DNA of 32,000 nt. It comes from Neomoorella thermoacetica (GTDB taxonomy: Bacteria > Bacillota > DSM-521 > Neomoorellales > Neomoorellaceae). Numbering within the stretch: position 1 is the stretch's first letter; every line of letters begins with the position of its first letter. The notes under the pieces are model-generated. The model was given only the letters and a program-made list of their open reading frames with translations, did not search any database and was not told the DNA's origin. This document shows positions 1,529-32,000 of this stretch, piece by piece. Position numbers and translations under genes: made by a program. The stretch spans positions 2,180,402 to 2,212,401 of the forward strand of contig NZ_CP012369.1 of NCBI RefSeq assembly GCF_001267405.1, written 5' to 3'.

Positions 1529-1566
1529 TCATATATCCCCCTTCTTCCGCCAGTATATCAACGAGG

Positions 1567-3297: not shown

Positions 3298-3383
3298 CTA
3301 CCTCCCGATATAATTTCCCCCAAAAAACTGCCAAATCAATCTTCAAGGGCATCTCAGCCGTTTTGGTCATGATAAATGTTCCC

Positions 3384-4826: not shown

Positions 4827-4831
4827 ATTTA

Positions 4832-6997: not shown

Positions 6998-7931
6998 TGA
7001 CCAGGTAGAAAACGAAGGACAGCAGGGCTATACCGAAAGCCAGCCAGGTCACTTCAGGGGCCTTATAAATAATCAACCTGGCCGAGCTGTTTTCCATCAA
7101 CGCAGCGATCACGTAAAAACCAGTAACCTTCAATAAAAAGGCAGCCGCAGACACCAGGAGAGAGGAAGTGCTAACCGCCGCGGCGCTCCCAAAGGGGAAG
7201 AAGACGGCGAGAAACAGGGCGATTACCACAACCTGCTTCATGCTCAAACTCCACTTCAAGATGGCCAGGGAGCGCCCGGAATACTCCGTGAGGGGGCCTT
7301 CCTGAAGCTCCTGTTCTGCTTCCGCCAGGTCAAACGGCAGCTTGCCGGTCTCGATGAAAGTGGCGACAGCAAAGGCCAGCATGCCAAGCCAGACTGCCGG
7401 TCTATAGTATGATATCGAACCGAACGCCACCTTCTGGCTGATGGCTCCCAGATCGGTCGAGCCGGTCAGAAGGGCAAGCACGAATAACACCAAAATAATG
7501 GTAGGTTCCACCAGAATGGCCAGCACCATCTCCCGGCTGGCTCCTATGCCGGCGAACCCGCTACCGGAATCCAGACCTGCGACGGCAAAAAAGAAGCGCA
7601 ACAGGGCGAACAGGTAAACAACCGCGATCAAATCACCGGCCATTCCCAGGGGCGACTGAAGAGTTAAAATCGGGATCACCATGGCAATGAGCAACGTGGT
7701 TGCCATCACTACATAGGGGGTAAAACGAAAAACCCAGCTGGCCTGTGCGGGGACCACCTCTTGCCGTTTTATGAGCTTAAAAATATCCCGGTAGTCCTGA
7801 AAAATACTGGCCCCTTTCCTGGAATGCAGCCTTGCCCTTAAGACACGGGTAAGGCCCGCGAAAAGAGGTGCTACCAGCAGGACTAACAGGGCCTGCATCA
7901 GGCCGACGAGGAACAATTTGATACCGGGCAT
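6990..7931 (-). CDS. hyfC: NuoH-like membrane subunit (HycD/HyfC)
   Basis: 313 aa, polytopic. Has the NuoH/HycD-like motif PFDLAEAEQELQEGPLTEYSG. Confidence 0.9.
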   Translation of the reverse strand: MPGIKLFLVGLMQALLVLLVAPLFAGLTRVLRARLHSRKGASIFQDYRDIFKLIKRQEVVPAQASWVFRFTPYVVMATTLLIAMVIPILTLQSPLGMAGDLIAVVYLFALLRFFFAVAGLDSGSGFAGIGASREMVLAILVEPTIILVLFVLALLTGSTDLGAISQKVAFGSISYYRPAVWLGMLAFAVATFIETGKLPFDLAEAEQELQEGPLTEYSGRSLAILKWSLSMKQVVVIALFLAVFFPFGSAAAVSTSSLLVSAAAFLLKVTGFYVIAALMENSSARLIIYKAPEVTWLAFGIALLSFVFYLVNV

Positions 7932-7943
7932 TTCTTTCTCCTC

Positions 7944-9968: not shown

Positions 9969-10534
9969 CTTTTTCTCCCTTCTGCTAAGATGGAGGTCAC
10001 GCCCACAATACTGGTACGCCTCTTTAACTTGCTCAGCCGTTCAATTTCTTCACCTTCAACGAGACGCAAAGCTCGCGTCGGACAAACTCTTACACAGGCG
10101 GGACCCTCAGCATCGAAATAACAGAGATCACACTTGGTAGCAATGGTTTTCTGCCCTGTAGCCCCGGCCAGTAGAGGTATCAAATAAGAGTTCAGCAGAC
10201 CATCTTTTTCGACCGAGGGAGCCGGTGTCCCCTGAATGTCGATGCAGCCAAAAGGGCAGACCAGGGCACACATCTTGCAACCGATACAGAGGCCCTCATT
10301 TAAATAAACCATCTGGTTCTTAATTTCAATAGCCTTAACAGGACATACCCTGGCGCAGGGAGCGTCCTCGCAATGGCGGCACTGGACGGGCATGGTACCA
10401 TCCGGGGTGTGGGTAACAAACAGTCTCGGGAAGGGTTGTAGCCCCTGCTTGTTATGGGCAAGAGCGCATCCTGCCATACAGGTATAACAACCCAAGCAAC
10501 GTTCGGGATCGGCAATTACAAAACGGTTAGGCAT
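9965..10534 (-). CDS. hyfA: Multi-[4Fe-4S] electron-transfer subunit (HycB/HyfA)
   Basis: 189 aa. MPNRFVIADPERCLGCYTCMAGC...CRHCEDAPCARVCP...CIGCKMCALVCP...CDLCYFDAEGPACVRVCP is near-collinear with my recollection of E. coli HycB. Overlaps the fdhF stop by 8 nt. Confidence 0.93.
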   Translation of the reverse strand: MPNRFVIADPERCLGCYTCMAGCALAHNKQGLQPFPRLFVTHTPDGTMPVQCRHCEDAPCARVCPVKAIEIKNQMVYLNEGLCIGCKMCALVCPFGCIDIQGTPAPSVEKDGLLNSYLIPLLAGATGQKTIATKCDLCYFDAEGPACVRVCPTRALRLVEGEEIERLSKLKRRTSIVGVTSILAEGRKS

Positions 10535-12767
10535 CGACCCTTCCTCCCTCCCCTATTACCGTTTTTGGTACGTTAGCTTTTTCCAGATCAACGAGGTATT
10601 TGGCCTTCTTCTCTAGATAAATAGCTCGGGCTTCTTCCGGTGATATTTTATCCATCCTGGCAGCCGCCAACTTAAACTCGGGCGTAGAGCAAATAGCATC
10701 ATTGGCTGTATTGGTCAATTCATTACAGCAGGCTTCCCAGTAATGGAAGGTCATAAAAATAGTCCCCTCGGGTACCCGCTCGGTCACCCATGCCCGTACT
10801 GCCACATAGCCTCGCCTGGTGGATACCTTGACAAAGTCGCCGTCGTTGATGCCCATTTTCCTGGCATCCTGGGGATTGATCTCCACCAATTCGTTAGGTC
10901 CAATTTGGTCAAGGAGCCATGATTTACGGGTCATAGTACCCGTATGATAATGATATACTCGCCTGCCGTTGGTCAGGATAAAAGGATATTCCTCGTCAGG
11001 CAACTCGGCAATAGTGCCAACAATGACCTGATTGCCAGCTTTTGCCTTCTCCTTCGACGCGCCATTGGAGGCTTTCGCATAGAATATTACTGGATAAAGC
11101 CGTGCTTTACCGGACGGTGTGAGGAATTTACCTCCCTCGTAAAGGATGGGCGTTCCTGGATGTTCCTCCTGCGGGCAGGGCCAGGTAATGCCCCGGACAC
11201 TCTCCAGACGGGCGTAGCTTATGCCGCCGAACTTCTCCGGCACCAGGCGTCTTACCTCATCCCAGATTTCCTGGGAATTACTGTAATTTAATCCCATATA
11301 CCCCATTTTCTGAGCTAACATTCCAAAGATTTGCCAGTCCGGTCGTGCCTCGCCGGGTAGGTCCACCGCTTTACGTACCCGCTGCACCCTGCGCTCGGTA
11401 TTGGTGAAAGTGCCGTCCTTTTCCGCCCAGGAAGCAGCCGGCAGTACCACATCCGCCAGGCGGGCGGTCTCTGTGAGGAAAATATCCTGTACGACCAGGA
11501 GGTCGAGATGCTCCAGGGCATGACGCAGGTGGTCACTATCGGGATCGCTCATTATAGGATTCTCACCAAAGATATACAGGGCCCGGATCTTTCCCTCTAA
11601 TATGGCCTCCGGGACTTCCGGGATCCGGATACCCGGCTTGGAGGGCAACTTCACCTTCCACTCTTTTTCAAAGCGGCGCCGCCACTCTTCCCGGGTGACG
11701 TTAAGGTAACCGGGGAGAACATCTGGTAATCCGCCCATATCACAGGCGCCCTGGACGTTATTCTGACCCCTGAGGGGGCACACGCCGGTGCCGGGACGTC
11801 CCAGATTGCCTGTGACTACGGCCAGGTTAGAAAGGGAGACTACGTTACCCGTACCGTGGCTAAACTGCGTAACGCCCATGCAGTACAAAATCATTGCTGC
11901 CTGGGCGCGACCGTAAAGGCGCGCCGCCTCAATCAGGTCCCTTTGAGGAATTCCGGTAAGCTCCTCCACATAAGCCGGGGTGTACTGTTCCACTGCCCGC
12001 ACCAGTTCGTCGAGGCCCTCGGCGTGTTTCTGGATAAAGTCCTTTTTAACCAGCCCCTCTTTTATAATGAGATGGAGCATGCCGTTGATAAGGGGAATAT
12101 TATAACCGACAGGTACCCTGAGCCAAATATCGGCTTTGTTGGCCATTTCTGTCAGACGCGGATCGGCTACAATGAGCTTTGCCCCACGCTCCTTGGCTTT
12201 TAGGACATGCCTGGCCACCAGGGGATGGCATTCAGCAGTATTGGAACCTATGATAAAAATAACATCCGAGTAAGTGCTTATTTCGGCGATAGAGTTGGTC
12301 ATTGCCCCGCTGCCCAGTGTCATCGCCAGACCGGCGACAGTAGGCGCGTGTCAGAGGCGGGCACAATGATCGATATTATTGGTACCCATTACCGCCCTGG
12401 TAAACTTCTGGGCGGCATAATTGTCCTCATTGGTGGCTCGCGCCGAAGTAAACAGGGCAAAAGCATCCGGACCGGACTCTTCTTTAATCTTTTTAAGGCG
12501 GCTGACAACATACTCCAGCGCTTCATCCCAGGAAACCGCAACAAATCCGCCGTCTTTCTTTATTAAAGGAGCAGTCAGGCGCCGGGAATCCTGAACGTAC
12601 TGGTAACCATAATAGCCCTTTACACAGAGCTCACCTTCACTCACTGGATGGAGACGGTCCGGAGCGACGCCGGTAATTTTGCCATCCTGAACGGTAAGGT
12701 TCAGGCCGCAGCCAGTGCCGCAGTATGGACATACTGTCAATACCTGTTCTGGCTCCACTTTTTTCAT
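10527..12767 (-). CDS. fdhF: Formate dehydrogenase H catalytic subunit, selenocysteine-containing (Mo/W-bis-PGD), 746 aa with in-frame UGA at 12353-12351
   Basis: Track ORFs 12351..12767 and 10527..12323 are in the same frame and are separated only by TGA. Read-through gives ...[30 protein letters not shown]..., which matches the FdhF Sec context CARV-U-HGPSVAGL. The N-terminus has the 4Fe-4S motif CPYCGTGCG...CVKG. AGGAGG lies 7 nt before the ATG. Confidence 0.93.
12322..12353 (-). promoter_or_regulatory. UGA codon plus candidate bacterial SECIS hairpin
   Basis: The minus-strand RNA reads UGA CAC GCG CCU ACU GUCGCC-GGUCU-GGCGAU. This gives a 6-bp stem (12338-12333 with 12327-12322) and a GGUCU loop starting 12 nt after the UGA. 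The loop resembles the E. coli fdhF SECIS apical loop. Confidence 0.7.
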
Positions 12768-12981: not shown

Positions 12982-13887
12982 TTAAGCGGCTTTGGAAAAC
13001 CTCACAGAACGTTCTTTTTCTGCTTTTAAATAAACATACCAGTATACCGTTCCAACAAATAAACCCGCGCCAACGATATTACCCAGAGTTACCGGGATGA
13101 GGTTGTTCACAAAGAATGTTTCCCACGTCGCCTTTAAGACGGGAGCCTGGGTGGCGATACCTTGCGCAGTATGCGTAAAGGCTACATAGGCGGGATTGTT
13201 ACCGACAAAAATACCGAGAGGTATGAAAAACATGTTGGCCACCGAGTGCTCAAAGCCCACAGCCACGAAGGCCATAATCGGCCACCACATGGCATAAATC
13301 TTGCCAGCAATGTCGTTGGCGCTGAAGGCCATCCAAACGGCCAGGGCAACCAACCAATTGCAGCCAACTCCTCGCCAGAAAGCTTCCCACCAGTTCAATG
13401 CGGTTTTGGCATTAGCAAGATTAACTATAAATGCCGCCCAGGGCATTTTGGCCACTACATCTCCGGTCTTAACAGGTTCCAGAGTCAACCCCGTCATGTA
13501 CGCAAGGAAAAAGGCAACAAAAATAGACCCGATGAAATTACCCAGGTAGGCAAGAACCCAGTTCTTGAAAACACCATTAACTCCAATTTTCCTTTCCAGC
13601 AAGGCTAAAGGTTGAGTCATGAAGTTACCGGTAGCGAGCTCTGCCCCAGCGATAATGACCATCATCAGGCCAACCGGGAAAACGCCGGCAAAAATAAGTT
13701 TTTGCAGGCTGCCCCACACTTCATTAGGGACTGCACCGCTTACGCGAACGGCAAGTAATCCTCCCAGGGCAATATAGGCTCCTGCCAGAAAGCCAAGGAC
13801 CAGGGTTTTGTTAACAGGCAAAGCGGCTTTCTTTACTCCTGCTTGAACTATATCCATAGCTACTTCTTTTGGTAGTTTGAAGGCCAT
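12982..13887 (-). CDS. focA: Formate/nitrite transporter family channel (FocA-like)
   Basis: 301 aa, six or more hydrophobic segments. Has FNT-like blocks such as GAELATGNF and FEHSVANMFF. First gene of the fdhF-hyf string. Confidence 0.92.
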   Translation of the reverse strand: MAFKLPKEVAMDIVQAGVKKAALPVNKTLVLGFLAGAYIALGGLLAVRVSGAVPNEVWGSLQKLIFAGVFPVGLMMVIIAGAELATGNFMTQPLALLERKIGVNGVFKNWVLAYLGNFIGSIFVAFFLAYMTGLTLEPVKTGDVVAKMPWAAFIVNLANAKTALNWWEAFWRGVGCNWLVALAVWMAFSANDIAGKIYAMWWPIMAFVAVGFEHSVANMFFIPLGIFVGNNPAYVAFTHTAQGIATQAPVLKATWETFFVNNLIPVTLGNIVGAGLFVGTVYWYVYLKAEKERSVRFSKAA

Positions 13888-15010: not shown

Positions 15011-15964
15011 ATGCTCAAGGCCCTGGCGGATTATATTGTCTACCGCCTTTTCAATCTGGCCCACGGCACCAGGCTGGCCGAGGCCCTGAATTTCTTTATC
15101 TACGATTCGGTCAAAATCTTTATCATGCTGGCCGTGATTATCTTTATCGTGTCCGTTATCCGCAGCTTTTTCCCGCCGGAAAGGACGCGGGCCATCTTGA
15201 GCCGCAGGCATGAGTATGTGGGTAACATCCTGGCTTCCCTTCTGGGGATCGTCACCCCCTTTTGTTCCTGTTCAGCAGTGCCGGTCTTCATCGGCTTCGT
15301 GGAATCCGGGGTACCCCTGGGGGTTACCTTCTCCTTTTTGATCTCGTCACCCATGGTAAACGAGGTGGCCCTGGTCATGCTGTGGGGGATGTTTGGCTGG
15401 AAGATAGCCCTTATCTATATTGCCAGCGGCCTGGCGGTGGCCATAGCCGGGGGCCTGGTCATCGGCCGCCTGCACCTGGAACGCGAGGTTGAAGATTATG
15501 TCTACGAAATTAAGCTGGGGGAAACGGCGACTTTAGCCACCTTAACCTGGCAGGACCGGGTCAACTATGCCCGGGGGTACGTGAAAGAGATCCTGAAGCG
15601 GGTCTGGCTTTTTGTCCTCATCGGCATTGGCATCGGTGGCTTTATCCACGGTTACGCGCCGGAAACGCTGCTGCTGCGCTATGCCGGCCCCGGTAACCTC
15701 CTGGCCGTACCGGTGGCCGTGGCCATAGGGGTGCCTTTATATTCCAACGCCGCCGGCACCATCCCCATTGTCCAGGCCCTGATGGAAAAGGGTATGTCCC
15801 TGGGAACAGTCCTGGCCTTCATGATGTCCGTTACCGCCCTGTCCCTGCCGGAGATGATAATCCTGCGCAAGGTTTTAAAACGGCGGCTGATTGCTATTTT
15901 TATCGGGATTATAACAGTAGCTATCATGCTGGTAGGTTATTTGTTTAATATTATCCTGGGATAA
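15011..15964 (+). CDS. DUF318/ArsP-type permease (PF03773-like)
   Basis: 317 aa, polytopic, with the Cys-pair motif GIVTPFCSCSAVPVF. Lies 17 nt downstream of the ArsR gene, which is the typical arsR-permease pairing. Confidence 0.85.
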   Translation: MLKALADYIVYRLFNLAHGTRLAEALNFFIYDSVKIFIMLAVIIFIVSVIRSFFPPERTRAILSRRHEYVGNILASLLGIVTPFCSCSAVPVFIGFVESGVPLGVTFSFLISSPMVNEVALVMLWGMFGWKIALIYIASGLAVAIAGGLVIGRLHLEREVEDYVYEIKLGETATLATLTWQDRVNYARGYVKEILKRVWLFVLIGIGIGGFIHGYAPETLLLRYAGPGNLLAVPVAVAIGVPLYSNAAGTIPIVQALMEKGMSLGTVLAFMMSVTALSLPEMIILRKVLKRRLIAIFIGIITVAIMLVGYLFNIILG

Positions 15965-23955: not shown

Positions 23956-24444
23956 CTATCGGCCCCAGTGGGTGATATTATGTTCGTAATAAAGAAGGGG
24001 TTTTTTATCACTGTTGACCTGGGCCGCTACCACCTGGCCGGTAATAATGATATGATCGCCGCTCTGGAAGCGATTACTCACTTTACACTCCAGGTTGGCC
24101 AGGGCGTCTTTCACCCCCGGTGTGGTAACTACCGCCGACGGCACGGTAGCCAGGCCCAGTTCCTTGATTTTATCGACGTCTCTGCCTGAATGGCTACCGC
24201 AGAAGACGGCGATTTTCTCCTGATCATCAGCCAGAATGGAGAGGACAAACTCTCCGGCGGCATCCAGGAGTTCCAGCACGTAGCGGTTGGGGTGAAGGGC
24301 CACCATTACCTGGGGCGGGTTGGACGACTCCTGGCTAAACCAGGCCACAGTGGTCAGATCGTGCTTTTCCCCCTGTTTCACCCCTACCAGGCCGCAAGGG
24401 CAGGTGATCTTGCCCAGGGCGCGGGAAATTTCGGCAGTGCTCAT
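23956..24444 (-). CDS. Flavin reductase-like FMN-binding domain protein
   Basis: 162 aa from the ATG at 24444, which lies 8 nt after AAAGGAG (the track uses an upstream TTG at 24462). The pattern LTTVAWFSQESSNPPQVMVAL...FVLSIL...ANLECKV fits the PF01613-like fold. Confidence 0.75.
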   Translation of the reverse strand: MSTAEISRALGKITCPCGLVGVKQGEKHDLTTVAWFSQESSNPPQVMVALHPNRYVLELLDAAGEFVLSILADDQEKIAVFCGSHSGRDVDKIKELGLATVPSAVVTTPGVKDALANLECKVSNRFQSGDHIIITGQVVAAQVNSDKKPLLYYEHNITHWGR

Positions 24445-24746
24445 GAAACCAACTCCTTTCAAATAGCTTCGCTTTTATTATACCCCATTTTCCACCACAA
24501 CATCATGGGATGGACTGCAAAACAGGTTGCCGGTACCTCCGTCGTATTTGCCCCGCCAAAGGCCGTGCAGGCAAATGACTACGGTAAAGGTGTTAGTTAC
24601 CGGGGAACTAGAAACATATGTGACGGCCGCTCATTGATGGCCCATTCGTCTTTAAACAGCATAGTAATCACATCAGGTGTTCGACCATACTGCTAATTCG
24701 ATACCGGTAGAGGATGAAAACGGCAGAGGAATAACATGGCAATATA

Positions 24747-24775
24747 TTGAAAGGTAGTCTCGCCGGCGCTATAAT
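24747..24775 (+). promoter_or_regulatory. Sigma-A-type promoter of the toxin-antitoxin operon
   Basis: TTGAAA (24747-24752), a 17-nt spacer, then TATAAT (24770-24775). GGAGG lies 8 nt before the ATG at 24798. Confidence 0.6.
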
Positions 24776-24797
24776 ATGACCACATGGAGGTGGAAAA

Positions 24798-25067
24798 ATG
24801 GAACAGATCGGTATTAGAAAGATGAAGGCATCCATGAGCCAGTATATCAAGCGAGTTAAAGAAGGGGAAACCCTGATTATTACCGTTCGTGGCCGTCCTG
24901 TGGCCAGGCTGGTGCCGATAGAAAATAAACTACCCTCCGGTATTACTACCATGTTAGATAAAGGCCTGGCATCGTGGGCTGGCGGCAAGCCACTAGGAAC
25001 CAAACAATATTTGCCAATTAAAAAAGGCTTTTCCATTGCCCAAATAGTAGAGGAAGATCGCCGGTGA
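24798..25067 (+). CDS. Type II antitoxin, Phd/YefM family
   Basis: 89 aa. IGIRKMKASMSQYIKRVKEGETLIITVRGRPVARLVPIE is the classic Phd/YefM N-terminal domain. Its stop overlaps the toxin start (GTGA). Confidence 0.88.
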   Translation: MEQIGIRKMKASMSQYIKRVKEGETLIITVRGRPVARLVPIENKLPSGITTMLDKGLASWAGGKPLGTKQYLPIKKGFSIAQIVEEDRR

Positions 25068-25507
25068 TATCTTACCTTGATACCAGCGCCCTGGTGAAGC
25101 TGTATATTTATGAGGAAGGCACCCCGGAGGTCAAAGAACTCGCGGCCAATTCCCTCATTGTGGCTACCTGTAAAATTGCCTACGCTGAAGCAAGAGCCGC
25201 CCTGGCCCGCGGTCACCGGGAAAGAGCTCTCGATGATGCAGTATATACCCAAGCCGTTACAGCTCTCAAGGATGATTGGCGTAATTACTTCGCCATAGAA
25301 GTATCCGACGCCTTGATAGATAAGGCCGGAGAGTTAGCAGAACGGCATCAACTGCGTGGTTTTGATGCCGTTCATTTGGCAGCAGTATTGATGTTAAAGC
25401 AACAGGTAAAGGATAATATAACCGTAGCTTGCTGGGATAAAAAGTTCTGGCAGGCCTTGAAGGCCAATAACTTTACCTTATTACCAGAGGAGCTTCCCGG
25501 CGCCTGA
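25064..25507 (+). CDS. vapC: Type II toxin, PIN-domain VapC
   Basis: 147 aa. Acidic PIN residues appear in YLDTSALV, EARA, FDAVHLA and CWDKKF. There is a 4-nt overlap with the antitoxin gene. Confidence 0.88.
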   Translation: MISYLDTSALVKLYIYEEGTPEVKELAANSLIVATCKIAYAEARAALARGHRERALDDAVYTQAVTALKDDWRNYFAIEVSDALIDKAGELAERHQLRGFDAVHLAAVLMLKQQVKDNITVACWDKKFWQALKANNFTLLPEELPGA

Positions 25508-25536
25508 CCTTTGCCCGGTCGACATCTCAATGGAGC

Positions 25537-25587
25537 AGGTCCGGGGGGTAGCCAGGCTCCGATTTCCCGAGACCTCATAACTTTTTT
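25537..25587 (+). terminator. Candidate terminator after vapC
   Basis: AGGTCCGGG (25537-25545) pairs imperfectly with CCCGAGACCT (25566-25575). CTTTTTT follows at 25581-25587. Confidence 0.4.
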
Positions 25588-25595
25588 AGCTTTCT

Positions 25596-26660
25596 CTATC
25601 CCCCTACGCCGTAATATCGCCGCTGGAAACCCAGGGCGACGTTCACCAGGCCGATCATCACTGGCACCTCAATTAAGGGCCCGATGACCGCTGCGAAGGC
25701 CTGGCCGGAATTAATGCCGAAGACGGCCACGGCCACGGCGATGGCCAGCTCAAAATTATTGCTGGCGGCCGTAAAGGAGAGGGTCGTGGTTTGCTCGTAG
25801 TTGACCCCCAGGCGCATGCTGACGAAAAATGAAATGAGAAACATAATAACAAAGTAGCAGATCAGGGGTACAGCGATCCTGACTACATCCATGGGTAACG
25901 AAACGATATACTGGCCTTTCAGGGAAAACATGACCACAATAGTAAATAGCAGGGCGATTAAAGCCAGGGGGCTGATTTTGGGGACAAAGGTTTTCTCATA
26001 CCATTCTTTGCCCCTGGCCGGTATGAGGGTAAAACGGGTAAACACCCCGGCCAGGAAGGGGATGCCCAGGTAGATGGCCACGCTGGTGGCCACCTCGCCG
26101 ATAGAAACGTGGACTTTCATTCCTTGAAAACCCAGCCAGGAAGGTAGCAGGGTGATGAAAATATAGGCGTAAATTGAATAAAAGATAACCTGGAAGATGG
26201 AGTTCAAGGCCACCAGGGCGGCGGCGTACTCGGCGTCGCCCCGGGCCAGGCTGTTCCAGATGATGACCATGGCGATGCAGCGCGCCAGGCCGATTAAAAT
26301 GAGGCCGGCCATGTATTCCGGATAATTGTGCAAAAAGAGAATGGCCAGGACAAACATCAGGATGGGACCGATAATCCAGTTCTGGATAAGGGATAAGGCC
26401 ATAACTTTGCCGTTGCGGAATACCTTGCCCAGTTCCTCGTACTTGACCTTGGCCAGGGGCGGGTACATCATGACGATAAGGCCGATGGCGATGGGGATGG
26501 AAGTTGTGCCCACAGACATTTTATTCAGAGCATCCGCTACCCCGGGCACCATATAACCCAGGCCCACGCCCAGGGCCATGGCCAGGAAGATCCACAGGGT
26601 CAAAAAGCGATCCAGGAGGGATAACCTGGCCACGGGTTGATAATTATTTACTGGTGCCAT
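25596..26660 (-). CDS. acr3: ACR3-family arsenite efflux transporter
   Basis: 354 aa, about 10 TM segments. The N-terminus [24 protein letters not shown] and the overall pattern are typical of ACR3/ArsB(Acr3). Located downstream of arsR. Confidence 0.9.
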
Positions 26661-26749
26661 TAACTGAAATCCTCCTTCTTATCCTTTCTTTGCTACGTTA
26701 GTACGAAAATAGCCCTATTTTCATAAACGCGCCCTAACAGTTGCCGTCT

Positions 26750-27139
26750 TTACTTATACCTCTTCCGGGGCGGGCGGCAGGCAACCTTGGGGTTTTCCAG
26801 GAGCTGCTGCAGCTTATCGTAGTCGGCAGTAAACTCTTTCTTTTCCGCCAGGGGTACATCCAGGTAGGCCAGCCAGCTCTGAAGGACCGCGGCCAGTTTT
26901 TCTTTTTTCAAGTGGTAAAATACCCACTGGCTCACTTTTTCCTCCCAGACCAGGTCCGCTTCCTTCAGGACCCGCAGGTGCTGGGAGATAGCTGGCTGGG
27001 TGATGCCCAAAATCTCTTCCAGCTCGCAGACGCACAGTTCCTGTTCGGCCAGCAGGGCGATAATCCGCAGCCGCAAATGCTGGCCCAGGGCTTTAAAAGC
27101 CTTTTCCCACTCCTTCAATGTCACCCCCTTCACCTCCAT
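26750..27139 (-). CDS. arsR: ArsR-family arsenite-responsive repressor
   Basis: 129 aa. LRLRIIALLAEQELCVCELEEILGITQPAISQHLRVLKEADLV carries the As(III)-type CVC motif. A GTG at codon 6 follows GGAGGTG and may be the true start. Confidence 0.9.
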   Translation of the reverse strand: MEVKGVTLKEWEKAFKALGQHLRLRIIALLAEQELCVCELEEILGITQPAISQHLRVLKEADLVWEEKVSQWVFYHLKKEKLAAVLQSWLAYLDVPLAEKKEFTADYDKLQQLLENPKVACRPPRKRYK

Positions 27140-27157
27140 ATATAAGTAATTAATTAT

Positions 27158-27185
27158 ATTATATTAAAATTAAAGGCTTTGTCAA
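27158..27185 (-). promoter_or_regulatory. Candidate promoter of arsR-acr3
   Basis: On the minus strand: TTGACA (27185-27180), a 16-nt spacer, then TATAAT (27163-27158). It lies only about 18 nt upstream of the annotated ATG. Confidence 0.5.
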
Positions 27186-27233
27186 GAAAATTCAAGGGGG
27201 CCGCCGTAAGTTTTGCCGGTTGACCAATACCCC

Positions 27234-27262
27234 TTGACACAGGCATTGACCGGTAGTATCAT
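27234..27262 (+). promoter_or_regulatory. Near-consensus sigma-A promoter of the small Cys/His-rich gene
   Basis: TTGACA (27234-27239), a 17-nt spacer, then TATCAT (27257-27262). Confidence 0.65.
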
Positions 27263-27263
27263 G

Positions 27264-27304
27264 TAATTAGCCTATATATGTTAACGACATATATAGGCTA
27301 ATTA
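27264..27304. promoter_or_regulatory. Perfect palindrome with 18-bp arms and a 5-bp spacer at the transcription start (candidate PadR operator)
   Basis: TAATTAGCCTATATATGT-TAACG-ACATATATAGGCTAATTA begins 2 bp after the -10 hexamer. The inner core ATGT...ACAT is the core of known PadR-family operators. Confidence 0.6.
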
Positions 27305-27324
27305 AAAAGGAGGGGAAAAGGAAA

Positions 27325-27537
27325 ATGTGTAGCTCTGCCACTTACAGTCATAACCGTTGCCATGCTTGGGGCCCGCAGGGGGGAGGCTGCTGCCACAATC
27401 ATCACGCCGGCGGCTTCCGCCGCCACTTTTTAACCGCCGCGGAGAAAAAAGACCGGCTGGAAGAGTATCTCAAGGAACTGCAGGCCGAAGTAAAAGCCGT
27501 GGAGGAAAGGCTGAAGGAACTGGGTGAAGGGGCTTAA
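27325..27537 (+). CDS. Small Cys/His-rich protein with C-terminal coiled coil (DUF5320-like)
   Basis: 70 aa. The N-terminus is MCSSATYSHNRCHAWGPQGGGCCHNHHAGG. The C-terminus is AAEKKDRLEEYLKELQAEVKAVEERLKELGE. AGGAGG lies upstream. Confidence 0.7.
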   Translation: MCSSATYSHNRCHAWGPQGGGCCHNHHAGGFRRHFLTAAEKKDRLEEYLKELQAEVKAVEERLKELGEGA

Positions 27538-27944
27538 TACCCCTTCGCCACATCCGTGTCGTGCCCGCTAAAAAGTTTTTCATATCGCGCCAGGAAAGTT
27601 TCCAGGGCGGCTTTATTGCGCCGGATGGTCACCGCCCAGTCATGGAGGTAATCTACCCCTTCCGGGGTTATCTCATACCGGCGCCGGGCCGGTCCCGGGC
27701 CGCCGGTCGACCAGTGGGACCGTACCAGGCCGTCTTCCTCCAGGCGGCGTAAGTTGCGGTAAACAGCCCCGGCATCAGGGACGCCTTCCCATAATCCCAG
27801 CCGGTTCATGCTTTCCATCAGCTCGTAACCGTGGGTGGATTTCTCATAGAGCAGCAACAATAAGCAGGGCTGCAAAAAGCCTTCCATGCGGGCGCCGCGA
27901 CAGTCGCAGCGACTGTGATGCCCGCCGGACCCATGACCGCACAT
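27534..27944 (-). CDS. PadR-family transcriptional regulator with Cys/His-rich N-terminal extension
   Basis: 136 aa. PCLLLLLYEKSTHGYELMESM...GAVYRNLRRLEEDGLV is a PadR winged HTH. It is preceded by MCGHGSGGHHSRCDCRG. GGGAGTG lies 5 nt before the first ATG, which supports translation of the extension. Confidence 0.85.
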   Translation of the reverse strand: MCGHGSGGHHSRCDCRGARMEGFLQPCLLLLLYEKSTHGYELMESMNRLGLWEGVPDAGAVYRNLRRLEEDGLVRSHWSTGGPGPARRRYEITPEGVDYLHDWAVTIRRNKAALETFLARYEKLFSGHDTDVAKGY

Positions 27945-28055
27945 GGGCTCACTCCCTATCTGCTAATTACATATGTGTGTTAATATACAGTAATAGGATA
28001 AACCAATAATTCCATCCCGTCAACAAGACGCTATAACCCCTAAAGGAGAGATGCC

Positions 28056-28538
28056 ATGTTTACCCTGCTTCTTTACCTGCTGGCCTTGAGCGGGCTGTTA
28101 ATTTCTTTCGGGAAAGACCGGCATAAAACCCGGCTGGCTTTAATCAAGGGGTGGAAGGCCTTTACCAACATCTTGCCTGACTTTGCTGTCGTCCTGGCCT
28201 TGATAGGGATTATGTTGACCCACCTGTCACCTCATACCATTGCCGCCCTGGTGGGCAAAAACAGCGGCTTCCCGGGCATGCTGGCAAGCTCCATAGTTGG
28301 CTCCATCACCCTCATACCCGGTTTTGTTGCCTTCCCCTTGGCCAAATCCCTGTTGGACCGAGGGGCAGGTATCATGCAAATGGCCGTCTTTGTTTCGACC
28401 CTGATGATGGTGGGGGTTGTAACCGCTCCCCTGGAAAGCAGGTATTTCGGTAAAAAAGAAACTATCCTCCGCAATTCTTTGAGCTATGTATTTTCCTTTA
28501 TCGTGGCTATTATCATCGGGATGGTGGTGGGAGCGTGA
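28056..28538 (+). CDS. Split DUF318-type permease, N-terminal-half subunit
   Basis: 160 aa, hydrophobic. Aligns by eye to the N-half of the 15011..15964 permease (SIVGSITLIPGFVAFPL against GIVTPFCSCSAVPVFIGF), but without the Cys pair. Confidence 0.8.
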   Translation: MFTLLLYLLALSGLLISFGKDRHKTRLALIKGWKAFTNILPDFAVVLALIGIMLTHLSPHTIAALVGKNSGFPGMLASSIVGSITLIPGFVAFPLAKSLLDRGAGIMQMAVFVSTLMMVGVVTAPLESRYFGKKETILRNSLSYVFSFIVAIIIGMVVGA

Positions 28539-29077
28539 ACTTACTTAACTTAATTAAGACTTACCATTACTTTTTACTAATTATCTTCTTTGATGTGGTA
28601 ATAACCGTCTTTTATCCCGGCACAGGCTTAGCAATTTTTAAATACACCGCCGGTAACTTTGCCGAAATGCTCTCCATTATCCCGCCGATTTTTCTTCTCC
28701 TGGGCCTCTTAGATGTCTGGGTACCGCGGGAAACGATTATCCGCTACTTGGGTGAAGGATCCGGCTTAGAGGGCATTGTCCTAAGCATAGTACTGGGGGC
28801 GGCCGCCGCCGGGCCACTCTACGGCGCCTTCCCGGTGGCCGCCGTCATGGCGAAGAAAGGCACCAAATACAGCAACATTATTATTTTCCTCTGTTCCTGG
28901 TCGACTTTAAAAATCCCCATGTTCCTGTTTGAAATGTCAGCCCTGGGCATAAAGTTCGCCCTAACCCGCTGGCTGGTCAATATCCCCGGGATACTGGCGA
29001 TTGCTTATATTATCGACCGCCTCATCGGAGAGGAAAACAAAGCGGAATTCTACCGGCGGCAGATGGCAAATCTATAA
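28535..29077 (+). CDS. Split DUF318-type permease, C-terminal-half subunit
   Basis: 180 aa with a GTGA overlap with the preceding ORF. RETIIRYLGEGSGLEGIVLSIVLGAAAAGPLYGAFPVAAVMAKKG parallels ETLLLRYAGPGNLLAVPVAVAIGVPLYSNAAGTIPIVQALMEKG in the full-length paralog. Confidence 0.8.
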   Translation: MNLLNLIKTYHYFLLIIFFDVVITVFYPGTGLAIFKYTAGNFAEMLSIIPPIFLLLGLLDVWVPRETIIRYLGEGSGLEGIVLSIVLGAAAAGPLYGAFPVAAVMAKKGTKYSNIIIFLCSWSTLKIPMFLFEMSALGIKFALTRWLVNIPGILAIAYIIDRLIGEENKAEFYRRQMANL

Positions 29078-29081
29078 CGGC

Positions 29082-29597
29082 TTACCCCAGCATCCCCTGC
29101 AGGGCGTTGAAGCGTTCACTATTTTCCTCCTCCGCCAGGGGCGGGCAATCCGCCAGAGTGTTTTCACCGCTCAGCAATCTGGCGGCAAAAGCCAGGCAGG
29201 TCAACTGGCCGCATCGGCGGCAGTTAGTCCCGGGCAGCCATTTGTATATTTTGAGCGCTGTGGGCCTATCCTTTTTGGCGAAGGAAGGCTGGATTTCCTT
29301 TTGCCGCCGGTGGGTATCGTTGATTAAATCCTTGAGCCAATCCAGCACCTGGAGGGCGTCCGTCATATTGACCGCTTTGGCCATGGTAAGCTTGCGGGGG
29401 TAAAGGGTAATTAAGCGGAATTCTTTCAAAAAGGTCAAGTTTTTAGTGTAATGGTTATATACGGCATTTTTAATCACGGTATTGAGGTAAGGTAATAACT
29501 CCTCAATATCCTGGCTCAAAACCGCCTGCAGGCGGATCTTTTCCGCATCGGCCAGGCAGGTTTCCACTTTGGTGACGTCAATCATTTCCAGAAACAC
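29082..29597 (-). CDS. Fe-S-binding protein with a C-terminal PF04060-type domain (RnfB/AcsC N-terminal-like) and an unknown N-domain
   Basis: 171 aa. YKWLPGTNCRRCGQLTCLAFAARLLSGENTLADCPPL matches the LPxTNCGxCGxxTCxAFA...C motif. GTG start lies 8 nt after GGGAGG. Confidence 0.75.
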   Translation of the reverse strand: MFLEMIDVTKVETCLADAEKIRLQAVLSQDIEELLPYLNTVIKNAVYNHYTKNLTFLKEFRLITLYPRKLTMAKAVNMTDALQVLDWLKDLINDTHRRQKEIQPSFAKKDRPTALKIYKWLPGTNCRRCGQLTCLAFAARLLSGENTLADCPPLAEEENSERFNALQGMLG

Positions 29598-29695
29598 GGG
29601 TGCCGCCTCCCATATTTCTAATATTGCCTAAATCCTGCACCATAAGAAATGGAAAGAAATGCTCGGGCCTTATGATAACAAGTACTCTCAATACT

Positions 29696-30847
29696 TCAGC
29701 TTGTTAATTCTACAATTTCCCTTACCGCCGTTAAAAAGGCGTCTATCTCTTCCGTGGTATTAAAATAACTTACGCTGGCCCGCACCGTTCCCCGCTCCAG
29801 AGTGCTTATGGTTTTATGGGCCAGAGGCGCGCAGTGCAGGCCCACCCGGACCATAATTTCGTGGCCCTCGTCCAGGGCGTAGGCTACCTCTTCCGGGGCC
29901 AGTTCTTTAATGTTAAAGGAAACCACGCCCACCTTGGGTGCCGTTTCCCTCGGACCATAGACGGTCACCGCAGGTAACTCTTCCAGCCCGGCCAGCATCC
30001 TGGCCGTCAGAACCTCCTCGTGGGAACGGATCCGGCTGATCCCCTGGTTGAGGACATATTCCACAGCGGCTTTAAGGCCGGCAATGCCGACAACATTCAG
30101 CGTCCCGGCCTCGAAGCGATCCGGCAGGCCCTCAGGCATGTACTCCAGGCGGGACACCGAACCGGTACCCCCTTCCTTCAGGGGACGCAGATCGAAACCG
30201 GGACGTATATAGAGGCCGCCGGTACCCATGGGTCCGAGCAGGCCTTTGTGACCGGTAAAGGCCAGGAAATCGATATCCAGTTCCTGGACATCTATGGGAT
30301 ATACTCCGGCTGTCTGGGCGGTGTCCAGCAGGACAGGCACCTCGTGCCGGTGGGCTGCGGCAGTAATTGCCTGCACCGGCATCACCGTTCCCGTAACATT
30401 GGAGGCATGGGTGCAGGCCAGCAGGCGCGTTTCCTTACGGAAGGCCGCATCCAGCTCTGGCAGTAGCAGTTCGCCGTCTTCCCGGCAGGGCACCACGGTA
30501 ATGCTTATCCCGCGCTCCTTCTCCAGGGTTTTCAAACAGCGCCAGACGGCATTATGTTCCATAGCCGTAGTAATGACATGATCGCCGGGGTTCAACCAGC
30601 CCTTGAGGGCCAGGTTGATGGCCTCAGTGGCATTGGCGGTAAAAACGATGCGGGTGGCGTCATTAATGTTAAATAACTTCCCCAGTAGCCGCCGGCACTG
30701 GAAGACTATCTCTTCCGCCGCCAGGGCGCGTCGGTAGCCGCCCCTGCCGGCGCTGGCTCCTATATTCTTCATAAAATGCTCCATGGCCTGCCAGACCGCC
30801 GGCGGCTTGGGAAAGGTAGTGGCGGCGTTATCCAGGTAAATGGCCAC
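29696..30847 (-). CDS. Class V aminotransferase-fold PLP enzyme (cysteine desulfurase / selenocysteine lyase-like)
   Basis: 383 aa. The PLP-lysine context is FTGHKGLLGPMGTGGLYI and the active-site Cys context is RVGLHCAP. GTG start follows GGGGTG. Confidence 0.88.
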   Translation of the reverse strand: MAIYLDNAATTFPKPPAVWQAMEHFMKNIGASAGRGGYRRALAAEEIVFQCRRLLGKLFNINDATRIVFTANATEAINLALKGWLNPGDHVITTAMEHNAVWRCLKTLEKERGISITVVPCREDGELLLPELDAAFRKETRLLACTHASNVTGTVMPVQAITAAAHRHEVPVLLDTAQTAGVYPIDVQELDIDFLAFTGHKGLLGPMGTGGLYIRPGFDLRPLKEGGTGSVSRLEYMPEGLPDRFEAGTLNVVGIAGLKAAVEYVLNQGISRIRSHEEVLTARMLAGLEELPAVTVYGPRETAPKVGVVSFNIKELAPEEVAYALDEGHEIMVRVGLHCAPLAHKTISTLERGTVRASVSYFNTTEEIDAFLTAVREIVELTS

Positions 30848-30950
30848 TATTTACACCCCCTACCAGGGCATTCTTATTCGGCCTCAACTTTTTTCCGGAA
30901 TCTGATAAGGGGGGGATAACTTACTATCCTCCCTGTCCGACCCCGGACAA

Positions 30951-31283
30951 CTAAGCAAGAATATTTCCTACTTCTTTTATTATCTCCTCGCAGGGAATAT
31001 CACCGGCATAGCGGGGCGTGCCGTCGACCACCACCAGGGGCGCCGGGTAAGGGCCGTTAGTAAGGGCCCGCAGCTCTGACGGCACCTGATCCCGGGGTAC
31101 TGCCCGGAGGTCGATGTAAACAGCCTCCGCCTGCCCGGCGAACTTTTCCTCAAGCTGCTGCTGCAACTCGCCAACCTGCTTTTTAATCGCCGCCGTGGTC
31201 ATGGCCGCACCGCCGCCACAACCGCAACCGCAGCCACCCCCGCTACTCGGGTAATCATAAATCTCCACCTTAACTTTAGCCAT
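30951..31283 (-). CDS. Small thioredoxin-fold-like protein (ArsD/YuzD-like layout) with GGGCGCGCGGG motif
   Basis: 110 aa. KVKVEIYDYPSSGGGCGCGCGGGA ... AVYIDL ... PLVVVDGTPRYAGDIP has the beta-Cys loop-helix ... VDG layout of ArsD/YuzD-type proteins. GGAGGA lies 7 nt before the ATG, which is 3 nt after the upstream stop. Confidence 0.65.
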   Translation of the reverse strand: MAKVKVEIYDYPSSGGGCGCGCGGGAAMTTAAIKKQVGELQQQLEEKFAGQAEAVYIDLRAVPRDQVPSELRALTNGPYPAPLVVVDGTPRYAGDIPCEEIIKEVGNILA

Positions 31284-31286
31284 TGT

Positions 31287-31706
31287 TTACTCCTCCCGGT
31301 TAATTTTATCGACTTGCTCCAAGATAGCTGCCGCCACCTGGTCGACCATGGCTTTTTGCTCCGCTGTAAGCTCCCCGGTAGATAACGTCCCCTCGCCGAG
31401 CTTTTCCCCGGCACTGAAGTCCGTAACCACCACCTTGCCGCTTACCGGCCCGCTCAGGGCTTCGGTGGCCTTTAAAGCGCAACATTTTTCGCACCCGTCG
31501 ATGGTTATCGTGGGATAATCACGGGCGAAGTTGCGCTCTTCCTCGCCACCGGCCATAAACAGAGGCAGGCAAATAGTTACGAAATTATAGCCCGGCCTGA
31601 TGGACCGCAGCACCTTCTGGGTGGCCAGGCGGGAAATGGTCCCCCCGGGGCAGGCCTCGCCGCTGCAGGAAATCAGGCCGATGGATAATTTTCCTTCTTC
31701 ACTCAT
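31287..31706 (-). CDS. DGC-domain protein (putative zinc/metal-binding, PF08859-like)
   Basis: 139 aa. Contains SCSGEAC ... TICLP ... ITIDGCEKCCA (the DGC motif). GGAGGAG ribosome-binding site. Confidence 0.8.
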   Translation of the reverse strand: MSEEGKLSIGLISCSGEACPGGTISRLATQKVLRSIRPGYNFVTICLPLFMAGGEEERNFARDYPTITIDGCEKCCALKATEALSGPVSGKVVVTDFSAGEKLGEGTLSTGELTAEQKAMVDQVAAAILEQVDKINREE

Positions 31707-31729
31707 GCTTTCTCCTCCCCAACAGGCGT

Positions 31730-32000
31730 TTATTGCTCCTCTCCGGCGTCATACCAGCGATCGACTTTACCGGCCAGGTCGGCAGCCAGCTCGTCGGCAA
31801 TCTGCCACCCTGCCGCCGTCAGATGGGCGGCCGTGCCGGCATCGACGCCCCGGTGGTTGCGAAAAGCGTCCACGGCGCGGATCATTTCCACCACCCGGCC
31901 GCCGGCGTGCTCGACATTCTTGGCCGCGCAGAGCTTCGGGCAGCCGTCCACGGTAATGCACCTGGCGCCGGCGATCTCCTTCCTGGCCTCATTGTCGCCA
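31730..32000 (-). CDS. Second DGC-domain protein (5' end outside window)
   Basis: The frame stays open to the window edge: ...GDNEARKEIAGARCITVDGCPKLCAAKNVEHAGGRVVEMI... The track's 'M' at 31951 is an internal GTG. Confidence 0.7.
   Translation of the reverse strand, partial: GDNEARKEIAGARCITVDGCPKLCAAKNVEHAGGRVVEMIRAVDAFRNHRGVDAGTAAHLTAAGWQIADELAADLAGKVDRWYDAGEEQ

Follow-up and report, generated by a model that had tools for sequence, protein, structure and literature searches.

We analyzed a 32,000-nucleotide (nt) stretch of the Neomoorella thermoacetica genome (Moorella below; contig NZ_CP012369.1, positions 2,180,402 to 2,212,401), hereafter called the window, whose right-hand end carries a string of five minus-strand genes for Cys-rich proteins. 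The first in the direction of transcription encodes DGC2, a protein of 140 amino acids (aa), of which the C-terminal ~90 are inside the window (31730 to 32000, the start lying beyond the window end). It is followed by the genes for DGC1 (31287-31706, 139 aa, PF08859); for a protein that we call (CG)3 (30951-31283, 110 aa), which has a thioredoxin fold with the motif GCGCGC at the CXXC position, in an ArsD-like layout; for a class V pyridoxal 5'-phosphate (PLP) enzyme (29696-30847, 383 aa, PF00266 and TIGR01977, EF2568 clade); and for an iron-sulfur (Fe-S) protein (29082-29597, 171 aa) composed of an N-terminal domain resembling the TATA-binding protein (TBP) and a C-terminal [4Fe-4S] domain (PF04060). 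The gaps measure 23 nt between DGC2 and DGC1, 3 nt between DGC1 and (CG)3, 103 nt between (CG)3 and the PLP enzyme, and 98 nt between the PLP enzyme and the Fe-S protein. An original prediction, made from the DNA alone, had singled out this string and a convergent split permease as an uncharacterized thiol- or persulfide-based module for a soft metal or metalloid. All of the open reading frames (ORFs), gaps, and coordinates on which it was built are present, as are the Cys motifs of the translations (SCSGEAC, DGCEKCC, GCGCGC, GLHCAP, and NCRRCGQLTC...C), and its family assignments were recovered as matches to PF08859, PF04060, PF00266/TIGR01977, and PF03773.

The minus-strand operon extends 1.7 kb past the window end, and its upstream part is carried by a locus of the same genome (L005; CP012370.1, reversed relative to the window). 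There, the complete DGC2 gene (140 aa; 9555-9977) is preceded by the genes for a 290-aa fusion of a third DGC domain to a GcvH domain (DGC3-GcvH), a 95-aa 2x[4Fe-4S] ferredoxin, and a 125-aa protein, p125, which gives the order promoter, p125, ferredoxin, DGC3-GcvH, DGC2, DGC1, (CG)3, PLP enzyme, Fe-S protein. From p125 through (CG)3, neighboring genes overlap or are at most 23 nt apart, and a perfect 12/12 promoter (TTGACA-16-TATAAT) lies 63 nt ahead of p125. No convincing promoter or terminator was seen in the 103- and 98-nt gaps, and Rfam gave no match in positions 24000-32000 of the window, including the gaps between genes. Because of the upstream genes, the tight spacing, and the promoter found in L005, the five window genes are genes 4 to 8 of one eight-gene operon. 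The five genes had been predicted to form a unit of their own, which is not the case, as the conserved core, p125-ferredoxin-DGC:GcvH-DGC2-DGC1, lies largely outside the window.

A scan with a DGC1 alignment, covering one genome per species, returned at least 582 DGC1 relatives, and the best 80 of these, each with 10-kb flanks, make up the locus set used below. Neighbors were counted by phmmer with the Moorella proteins as queries against every ORF of the 80 loci, and further neighbor families were obtained by unsupervised clustering of all neighboring ORFs. The p125-ferredoxin-DGC:GcvH-DGC2-DGC1 cassette was found in fixed order and with near-identical spacing in most of these loci (67/80), in Bacillota (Clostridia, Negativicutes, and Desulfitobacteriia), Bacteroidota, Acidobacteriota, Armatimonadota, Desulfobacterota, Actinomycetota, and others. 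A second form (variant 2), with an unfused GcvH in the order GcvH-DGC2-DGC1-OsmC-Lpd-LipA, was found in 11/80 loci, from Desulfobacterota, Nitrospirota, Bathyarchaeia, and Methanobacteriota, and also on two metagenome contigs (L016 and L178), where it closes with a LipB/LplA-like gene; AhpC-like genes occur in variant 2 as well. The minimal core common to both forms is the lipoyl H-protein plus DGC2 (an orthologue of which is present in 79/80 loci) and DGC1, accompanied in many loci by a dihydrolipoyl dehydrogenase (E3). As the gene order recurs in dozens of unrelated genomes, far more than chance would give, the prediction that these uncharacterized families are functionally linked was borne out. 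The conservation expected of the neighborhood as a whole holds for the p125-to-DGC1 cassette and not for the rest of the string: (CG)3 was found in 3/80 loci, the Fe-S protein in 7/80, and the PLP enzyme in 16/80. Like the split permease (12/80), the PLP enzyme and the Fe-S protein accompany the cassette only optionally. Three genomes carry two whole cassettes each, namely Lucifera butyrica (L020/L021), Desulfosporosinus sp. BRH_c37 (L025/L030), and Eubacterium callanderi (L052/L056). Searches of 72,556 plasmids with p125 and DGC1 by tblastn gave no match.

The neighbors of the cassette are largely genes of arsenic resistance and thiol chemistry: arsR was counted in 59 of the 80 loci, Thioredoxin_3 in 40, an E3-like flavoprotein in 38, acr3 in 36, DsbD/CcdA in 31, arsP in 22, an arsC of the low-molecular-weight phosphatase (LMWP) type in 21, and rhodanese in about 11, and ABC/FtsX families were also recurrent among the clustered ORFs. 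When both Moorella loci are excluded, 68 of the remaining 78 loci have at least one ars-type gene within 10 kb. In at least 24 loci, arsR is immediately upstream of the cassette and co-directional with it, and 20 of these 24 regulators carry the As(III)-type CVC/CAC motif. The recurrent neighbor families that were annotated included no Suf, Isc, ThiI, or Mnm genes, and a housekeeping Fe-S, thiamine, or tRNA-thiolation route, which would have counted against the original prediction, was rejected on this basis. In Pseudodesulfovibrio mercurii ND132, an ArsR5-ArsP-PF13192-PF08859 operon with a single DGC is up-regulated by arsenic, and the strain makes an unexplained thioarsenical (10.1101/2022.10.17.512643). 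Genes 1 to 5 of the Moorella operon make up a widely conserved and mobile cassette, under ArsR control in its relatives, with an H-protein-like carrier, predicted to be lipoylated, at its center, and the string in the window is part of a modular arsenic island, of which the lipoyl/DGC/Fe-S cassette is the most conserved part. The soft-metalloid side of the original prediction is supported by this arsenic context, by the CVC/CAC motifs, and by the ND132 operon; its persulfide-centered core was not supported, as discussed below. Although arsenic resistance is among the best-studied bacterial detoxification systems, a five-to-eight-gene cassette under ArsR control, carried by hundreds of anaerobes that range from acetogens and sulfate reducers to Acidobacteriota, archaea, and Bacteroidales of guts and sediments, has so far gone uncharacterized.

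All three DGC domains of Moorella match PF08859 (cutoff 27 bits), with scores of 63.2 bits for DGC1, 47.4 bits for full-length DGC2 (24 for the fragment in the window), and 62.8 bits for the DGC3 domain. Cys14, Cys46, Cys72, and Cys76 of DGC1 are invariant in 50 homologues, and DGC2 and DGC3 likewise conserve Cys at the four equivalent positions. The AlphaFold2 (AF2) model of DGC1 (pLDDT 89) is a three-layer alpha/beta/alpha fold in which Cys14, Cys46, and Cys72 are placed at the C-terminal ends of strands beta1 to beta3 and Cys76 begins the next helix, a modeled arrangement typical of metal- or cluster-binding geometry. The DGC domain cannot be filed under any characterized family. Foldseek gave weak flavodoxin-like matches alone (riboflavin/lumazine synthase and low-molecular-weight protein tyrosine phosphatase; TM-scores of 0.42-0.48), and a search of the PDB sequences with the DGC profile found nothing; no close solved structure was found. 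Comparisons by hhalign with the LMWP-type ArsC of the same loci and with p125 gave probabilities of 5% and 0.1%, and no similarity to sulfur carriers of the DsrE/TusA type was detected, either by Foldseek or by the PDB profile search.

In 33/80 loci, the DGC1 orthologue ends in a CxC tail (GCGCGCGPK, GCGCGS, CGCGCSYKC, etc.) or in a C-terminal domain starting with CxCS. Moorella DGC1 has no such tail, and the gene for the GCGCGC protein lies 3 nt downstream of it. The motif thus recurs as a partner of DGC1, provided in cis by a tail or in trans by the separate (CG)3 protein. The longer DGC1 orthologues, of ~230-260 aa (L063, L067, L071, L078, L087, L089, L094, and L095), carry an extra C-terminal domain of ~90 aa that begins CxCS-x-P-LPGG and has no Pfam match.

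The (CG)3 protein of the window has no Pfam or NCBIfam match by itself, and its thioredoxin fold was recognized from the family profile, which matches 1fo5 (E 3.8e-6) and 1xg8/DUF1462. It partly resembles ArsD, in its fold and in its three clustered Cys after beta1, which occupy the thioredoxin CXXC position, where ArsD has its As(III) site; the profile match to ArsD/DUF1462 is weak, and hhalign gave a probability of 74% against a hand-entered ArsD query sequence. It differs from ArsD in that the Cys are spaced CxCxC (and vary within the family) rather than CC-x4-C and in that it is tied to DGC/GcvH genes. The original proposal to look for ArsD with PF06953 gave no match to the window protein, and 1 of 34 family members matched at E 0.023, so (CG)3 is not an ArsD by the Pfam model. 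UniProt names it ArsD automatically. The claim that the block contains no ArsA, ArsC, or known metallochaperone is thus debatable on its last point, as (CG)3 is a distant ArsD-like thioredoxin-fold protein; no ArsA-type Pfam family was seen among the called genes of the fetched Moorella loci, where no ArsA model was run. The family is rare (6 word-index matches, and 33 representative clusters among 1.84e9 proteins). Its members open variant 2 operons in L016, L079, and L178 and follow arsR-acr3 in L179.

The GcvH domain of DGC3-GcvH matches PF01597 (117 bits) and NF002270 (118.9 bits, cutoff 117), and the lysine of its ESAKAV motif aligns with the lipoyl-lysine of the human (GCSH, ESVKAA) and bacterial H-proteins. 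Its fusion to a DGC domain is non-canonical for the H protein of glycine cleavage, and no P or T protein was seen among the annotated neighbor families, gcvP and gcvT themselves not having been queried. Enzymes that act on lipoyl groups are encoded next to the cassette: a dihydrolipoyl dehydrogenase (TIGR01350, 505 bits, cutoff 409) directly upstream of p125 in about 35-48 loci, and a lipoate-protein ligase (TIGR00545, 422 bits, cutoff 280) directly downstream of DGC1 in 23 loci. The p125 protein, which has no Pfam match, is ~70% identical across phyla, with 50 invariant columns. Its profile matches residues 6-93 of the methanogen HdrA (7bkb_A, E 3.9e-4), which form the N-terminal [4Fe-4S] domain of that protein, and the Cys line up in this match; UniProt names p125 automatically as 'HdrA-like'. 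It is not an HdrA, as only this part (~6-93) is matched and both the flavin adenine dinucleotide-binding, thioredoxin-reductase-like core and the ferredoxin domains are missing. Together, p125, the ferredoxin, and the upstream flavoprotein resemble an HdrA taken apart.

A plausible but still tentative reading of this arrangement is that of an ArsR-controlled, arsenic-induced lipoyl/Fe-S dithiol relay serving arsenic detoxification, for which we infer the biochemical steps, the occupant of the Cys4 sites, and the substrate. The carrier would first be lipoylated, for which many loci have dedicated LplA or LipA/LipB genes. Its lipoyl arm would be kept reduced by NADH via dihydrolipoyl dehydrogenase where this enzyme is encoded directly upstream and, in Moorella, probably by ferredoxin via p125 and the 2x[4Fe-4S] ferredoxin. 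The dihydrolipoyl arm would then visit the Cys4 sites of the DGC domains, and these would hand on either reducing equivalents or As(III) to an acceptor that is flexible and rich in Cys, which would be the CxC tail of DGC1 in a third of the orthologues and the separate ArsD-like (CG)3 protein in Moorella. From there, the route may lead to thiol-dependent ars proteins (the thioredoxin-type ArsC, the small thioredoxin, and OsmC) and to exporters (Acr3, ArsP, and the split permease, the last being a putative exporter transcribed separately on the PadR side). The PLP enzyme and the TBP-fold/[4Fe-4S] protein would probably supply sulfur or clusters to these Fe-S and thiol proteins under arsenic stress. 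The ArsC proteins encoded in the cassette loci belong to the thioredoxin-coupled LMWP type, which requires a disulfide reductant.

Such a relay would have relatives. In Lpd-DlaT-AhpD-AhpC of Mycobacterium tuberculosis and in Lpd-lipoyl protein-Ohr/OsmC, E3 likewise reduces a protein-bound lipoyl arm that serves a Cys-based acceptor, and the variant 2 operons share with these thiol relays E3 and OsmC, a known type of lipoyl-dependent peroxidase. This general resemblance, with the AhpC-like genes of variant 2, also favors another explanation, in which the cassette would be a general disulfide- or peroxide-stress system or a lipoyl/Fe-S housekeeping system merely traveling with ars genes: either an antioxidant relay of the Lpd-lipoyl protein-OsmC kind or a spare set of H-protein and E3 to stand in for lipoyl enzymes poisoned by arsenic. 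Compared with the known relays, the acceptors of the cassette are uncharacterized DGC proteins, its carrier is an H-protein-DGC fusion, and its setting is one of arsR and ars genes; its major form includes Fe-S proteins of the HdrA-like and ferredoxin kinds but no peroxidase. Against the general-stress explanation, OsmC is missing from the major form, and none of the known relays involves DGC, p125, or ferredoxin. Neither gcvT nor gcvP, for which no query was made, stood out among the annotated neighbors. Given the linkage to As-type arsR genes, directly upstream and co-directional in at least 24 loci, we consider a housekeeping role quite unlikely.

Sulfur oxidizers provide a second relative, sHdr-LbpA, in which a heterodisulfide-reductase-like complex works with GcvH-like lipoate-binding proteins and dedicated lipoate ligases. 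The likeness lies in the GcvH-like carrier outside glycine cleavage, in the dedicated lipoylation enzymes, and in the Hdr-related Fe-S proteins; the cassette differs in that HdrA is represented by its N-terminal [4Fe-4S] domain alone, in that DsrE/TusA and the HdrB/C CCG subunits are lacking, and in being next to ars genes rather than sulfur-oxidation genes. Some ars operons also encode a thioredoxin reductase and a thioredoxin (arsT/arsX), and here, too, an ars island has its own electron supply for thiol-dependent detoxification; in comparison, the cassette is lipoyl/Fe-S-based rather than thioredoxin-based, far more elaborate, and confined to anaerobes. Full-text sources outside subscription journals yielded no paper on either the cassette or PF08859, with the exception of a single sentence of the ND132 preprint. 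The cassette would appear to be new, being absent from the searchable literature, and its nearest known kin are probably these lipoyl-protein and Hdr-like thiol relays and the ars-linked reductant supplies. If the cassette does act in arsenic detoxification, this would be a first clue to the function of PF08859, of a stand-alone HdrA N-domain protein, and of the TBP-fold Fe-S protein. H-protein-like lipoyl carriers would gain a third known use, after glycine cleavage and sulfur oxidation, and the role would bear on anaerobic arsenic cycling in paddy soils, aquifers, and guts.

Several observations weigh against a relay serving arsenic detoxification. In the strain of the window, the arsR gene just ahead of the operon has become a pseudogene (in-frame TAG, LAVLR*QDIV; N-terminally truncated), located at 7628-7800 of L005 (~33.9-34.1 kb in window numbering), beside fragmented major facilitator superfamily genes. 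As the perfect sigma-70 promoter is kept despite this loss, the operon may be constitutively expressed; a second, intact arsR-acr3 pair is found 2 kb from the cassette string in the same strain. In strain DSM 21394, the upstream arsR is intact and is followed by a canonical arsP, and it is the cassette that has decayed (L019 9274-10421): p125 is gone, the N-terminus of DGC1 is lost, and an internal deletion has merged DGC3, GcvH, and DGC2 into a 137-aa chimera, while (CG)3, the PLP enzyme, the Fe-S protein, and the permease are still intact. With the regulator pseudogenized in one strain and the cassette decayed in the other, the Moorella copy is clearly dispensable. It also has no adjacent E3 or lipoate ligase. 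More generally, acr3 or an LMWP-type arsC was found in only 35 of the 78 non-Moorella loci, ArsR-family regulators can sense other things, and the Cys4 site of DGC may, in line with the guess made in Pfam, bind structural Zn. The frequencies given here come from 80 loci with the closest DGC1 relatives only, so they may not hold for the wider DGC family, and every function proposed follows from guilt by association. Finally, the dihydrolipoyl arm is a prime As(III) target, which makes its employment against arsenic a paradox, unless it is there to bind the As(III).

In the cell, arsenite classically acts on lipoyl dithiols, so a lipoyl protein central to an arsenic response would be either an elegant decoy or a new redox route. 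The former would resolve the paradox: the cassette would be a line for As(III) capture and delivery, in which As(III) or methylarsenite, MAs(III), is bound directly by the dihydrolipoyl arm, by the Cys4 sites of the DGC domains, and by (CG)3 or the CxC tail. These would act as a decoy for the lipoyl enzymes of the cell and would chaperone the bound arsenic onward to Acr3, ArsP, or the split permease, with E3, ferredoxin, and p125 serving only to keep the thiols reduced. A vicinal dithiol and Cys3-4 sites are ideal As(III) ligands, and the ArsD-like fold and layout of (CG)3, the CxC tails of DGC1, and the exporters alongside all point in this direction. Nevertheless, three DGC paralogues and two Fe-S proteins that are 70% identical across phyla resemble a catalytic complex and not a sponge, no ArsA-type partner was seen (in the absence of an ArsA model from the search), and the OsmC and thioredoxin-type ArsC neighbors point to electron delivery. 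Capture and delivery is, in our view, possible but somewhat unlikely.

The cassette might instead be an oxygen-independent enzyme system by which anaerobes chemically transform arsenicals, with the swinging lipoyl arm as the carrier of substrate or electrons, an idea that we regard as unlikely. E3, p125, and ferredoxin would then work together as a flavin/Fe-S module of a 'split HdrA-like' kind that may couple NADH and ferredoxin, and DGC1 and DGC2 would represent a new type of catalytic subunit with a Cys4 site, probably for Fe-S. The reactions considered are the reduction of pentavalent or methylated arsenicals and the reductive cleavage or thiolation of arsenic species, for which we know of no anaerobic enzyme.

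Sulfur chemistry was at the center of the original prediction, in the form of a persulfide- or selenide-generating PLP enzyme. This enzyme is a clear member of the SufS/CsdA/SclA family: it scores 487.8 bits with TIGR01977 (cutoff 377), aligns over its full length with SufS/CsdB structures (E 1e-60), and carries the motifs FTGHKGL and RVGLHCAP, whose lysine and cysteine are the PLP-binding lysine and the catalytic cysteine, by comparison with the SufS motifs SGHK and HHCA. It has no SufE, SufU, or CsdE partners, in which it differs from those systems. It does not qualify as the selenocysteine (Sec) lyase SclA (NF040779, 399.4 bits, cutoff 525), and nothing else annotated in the 80 loci points to selenium. 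On this alternative, the PLP enzyme would make persulfide, or selenide from Sec, DGC and (CG)3 would carry it, for example to thiolate arsenic or to handle selenium, and the permease would export the product. It draws on the membership of the enzyme in the cysteine desulfurase family and its relation to SclA, on the PLP (16/80) and rhodanese genes of the cassette loci, on a homologue of the Fe-S protein (P0042) fused to a putative Se/S-carrier domain (PF11823), on the thioarsenical of ND132, and on the use of selenocysteine by Moorella. But the PLP gene is missing from 80% of the cassette loci and from the sister species M. naiadis, is set off by ~100-nt gaps from the tightly coupled core, and falls short of SclA, and DGC shows no similarity of the DsrE/TusA type. 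As the PLP enzyme is optional, a persulfide relay is not the heart of the system; with an accessory placed at its center, we consider the persulfide model less likely than either the relay or direct As(III) binding, and distinctly improbable.

The Fe-S protein that follows the PLP enzyme matches PF04060 at residues 121-153, within a C-terminal CX2CX4CX16C [4Fe-4S] domain of the AcsC/RnfB type, and its N-terminal domain is TBP-like, with a conserved Cys14 and a PYLN motif. In its AF2 model (pLDDT 92), Foldseek matched the [4Fe-4S] domain to 2ycl (AcsC; 44% identity over 54 aa) and the N-domain to the TBP structure 1mp9 (probability 0.99, root-mean-square deviation 1.8 A, 80 aa). The C-domain superposes on the N-domain of AcsC, a subunit of the corrinoid Fe-S protein (CFeSP), as in CFeSP (AcsC)/RnfB proteins; however, the match is limited to the 33-residue PF04060 motif, or a domain of ~54 residues, and with a TBP-like remainder and no corrinoid-binding parts the protein is not an AcsC/CdhE. 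The order PLP enzyme then Fe-S protein recurs in Thermincola potens, L029, L034, L052, L060, and L154. M. naiadis is without this pair, and its (CG)3 gene directly adjoins the permease. A metagenome scan for the Fe-S protein family, run with a narrow alignment and counting loci of at least 4 kb (n = 39), returned acr3 in 19 loci, Thioredoxin_3 in 18, arsR in 17, a larger thioredoxin in 15, arsP in 13, and DsbD in 12, with PLP genes in 2 and the DGC cassette in 2; the family is itself an ars-island resident. In a genome of candidate division LCP-89 (L014 9001-11985), the homologue precedes a CbiMNQO-type Ni/Co uptake operon and not ars genes, so the family may serve metal transporters more generally. 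The Joint Genome Institute name of a homologue is 'ArsR family metal-binding transcriptional regulator'.

On the plus strand, two genes converge on the operon. Half A of the permease (28056-28538, 160 aa, no Cys) scores 24.6 bits with PF03773, below the cutoff of 32.3 bits, and half B (28535-29077, 180 aa) scores 44.5 bits. The window also encodes a full-length, canonical ArsP_1 (15011-15964, plus strand; 285 bits, TPFCSCSAVP), 13 kb from the split permease, a close copy of which lies between arsR and the cassette in DSM 21394 (L019 8146-9102). Half A aligns to residues 18-100 and half B to residues 215-280 of this ArsP, that is, to its N- and C-terminal halves, so the permease gene is truly split, and between them the two products span the fold. 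ArsP, which exports methylarsenite, and the Cu/Zn exporter SO_0444 belong to the same superfamily (PF03773). The split permease is not a true ArsP: it is encoded by two genes, it stands beside a PadR regulator, and VGSITLIPG replaces TPFCSCSAVP, whose Cys pair (TPFCSCS) is reportedly required for MAs(III) transport by ArsP, according to work of Chen and colleagues from 2015. The stop codons of half B and of the Fe-S gene are 4 nt apart (29077/29082), as originally described; the conclusion that there is no room for a terminator did not follow, as the Fe-S gene itself contains, within its 3' end, two hairpins that resemble terminators of the permease transcript (29102-29117 and 29140-29154). 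The idea of a permease dedicated to the string stood in part: the split pair is beside the cassette in the 12 loci counted above and is also present in Thermincola, but in Moorella it is a transcription unit of its own, divergent from PadR, and has no ArsP Cys pair.

The convergent permease is one of the points in favor of a last explanation, that the locus has no joint function and is a patchwork of cassette, PLP and Fe-S pair, split permease with PadR, and arsR-acr3 within a genomic island. Each module is found alone elsewhere, and the Moorella content varies between strains. The modules nevertheless re-associate in unrelated lineages: the split permease is co-directional between arsR and the cassette in five clostridial loci (L023, L024, L076, L083, and L091), in the order arsR-permA-permB-lpd-cassette, and the PLP-Fe-S pair stands next to the cassette in the five L-numbered loci named for it above. 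We regard such a patchwork as very improbable.

The predicted PadR and arsR-acr3 genes were confirmed on the far side of the permease. PadR (27534-27944, minus strand; PF03551, 61 bits) has a Cys/His-rich N-terminus and is paired with a 70-aa Cys/His-rich coiled-coil protein, p70 (27325-27537, plus strand), with weak similarity to DUF5320; a PadR and p70 pair is also found beside a cation diffusion facilitator transporter in M. naiadis. Next come arsR (26750-27139, minus strand), with the motif ELCVCEL and a 12/12 consensus promoter at 27185-27158, and the arsenite efflux transporter gene acr3 (25596-26660, minus strand; TIGR00832, 465 bits, cutoff 283). The 111-nt region between PadR and the permease holds the palindrome ACATATGT (about 27970-27977). 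Just upstream of the p70 gene, a perfect 18-nt inverted repeat (27264-27304, TAATTAGCCTATATATGT N5 ACATATATAGGCTAATTA) contains ATGT/ACAT half-sites, to which ACATATGT is related, and adjoins an 11/12 sigma-70-like promoter (27234-27262). The repeat is a candidate operator, and the repeat and ACATATGT are possible PadR operators; PadR probably regulates the split permease.

Upstream of the operon, L005 also encodes a 375-aa PadR-DUF2703 fusion (4946-6073, minus strand) with a Cys-rich C-terminal tail, CCGISPLSKCCK. DUF2703 proteins were found in 11/80 cassette loci and in the Thermincola island, where the domain is fused to zf_CopZ/Fer2_BFD. DUF2703 is another uncharacterized Cys-rich domain of ars islands.

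In six Bacteroidales genomes (L045, L058, L059, L061, L073, and L093), genes for HgcA and an HgcB-like ferredoxin stand between the cassette or arsC and acr3. By its score, this HgcA is bona fide (NF040863, 437 bits, cutoff 275; for example, L059 6246-7277), and mercury-methylation genes are, as judged from sequence, embedded in the ars islands of these six genomes. With hgcAB in the same islands, the cassette may bear on the genomic link noted between ars and mercury-methylation genes.

Elsewhere in the window, a gene of the formate dehydrogenase H type (10527-12767, minus strand) splits into two ORFs at an in-frame TGA (12351-12353), which, lying inside CARL-U-HAPTVAGL, is a selenocysteine codon. 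This gene heads a formate-hydrogenlyase-like locus with FocA (12982-13887) and a Hyf/complex-I-like [NiFe] hydrogenase operon (214-10534).

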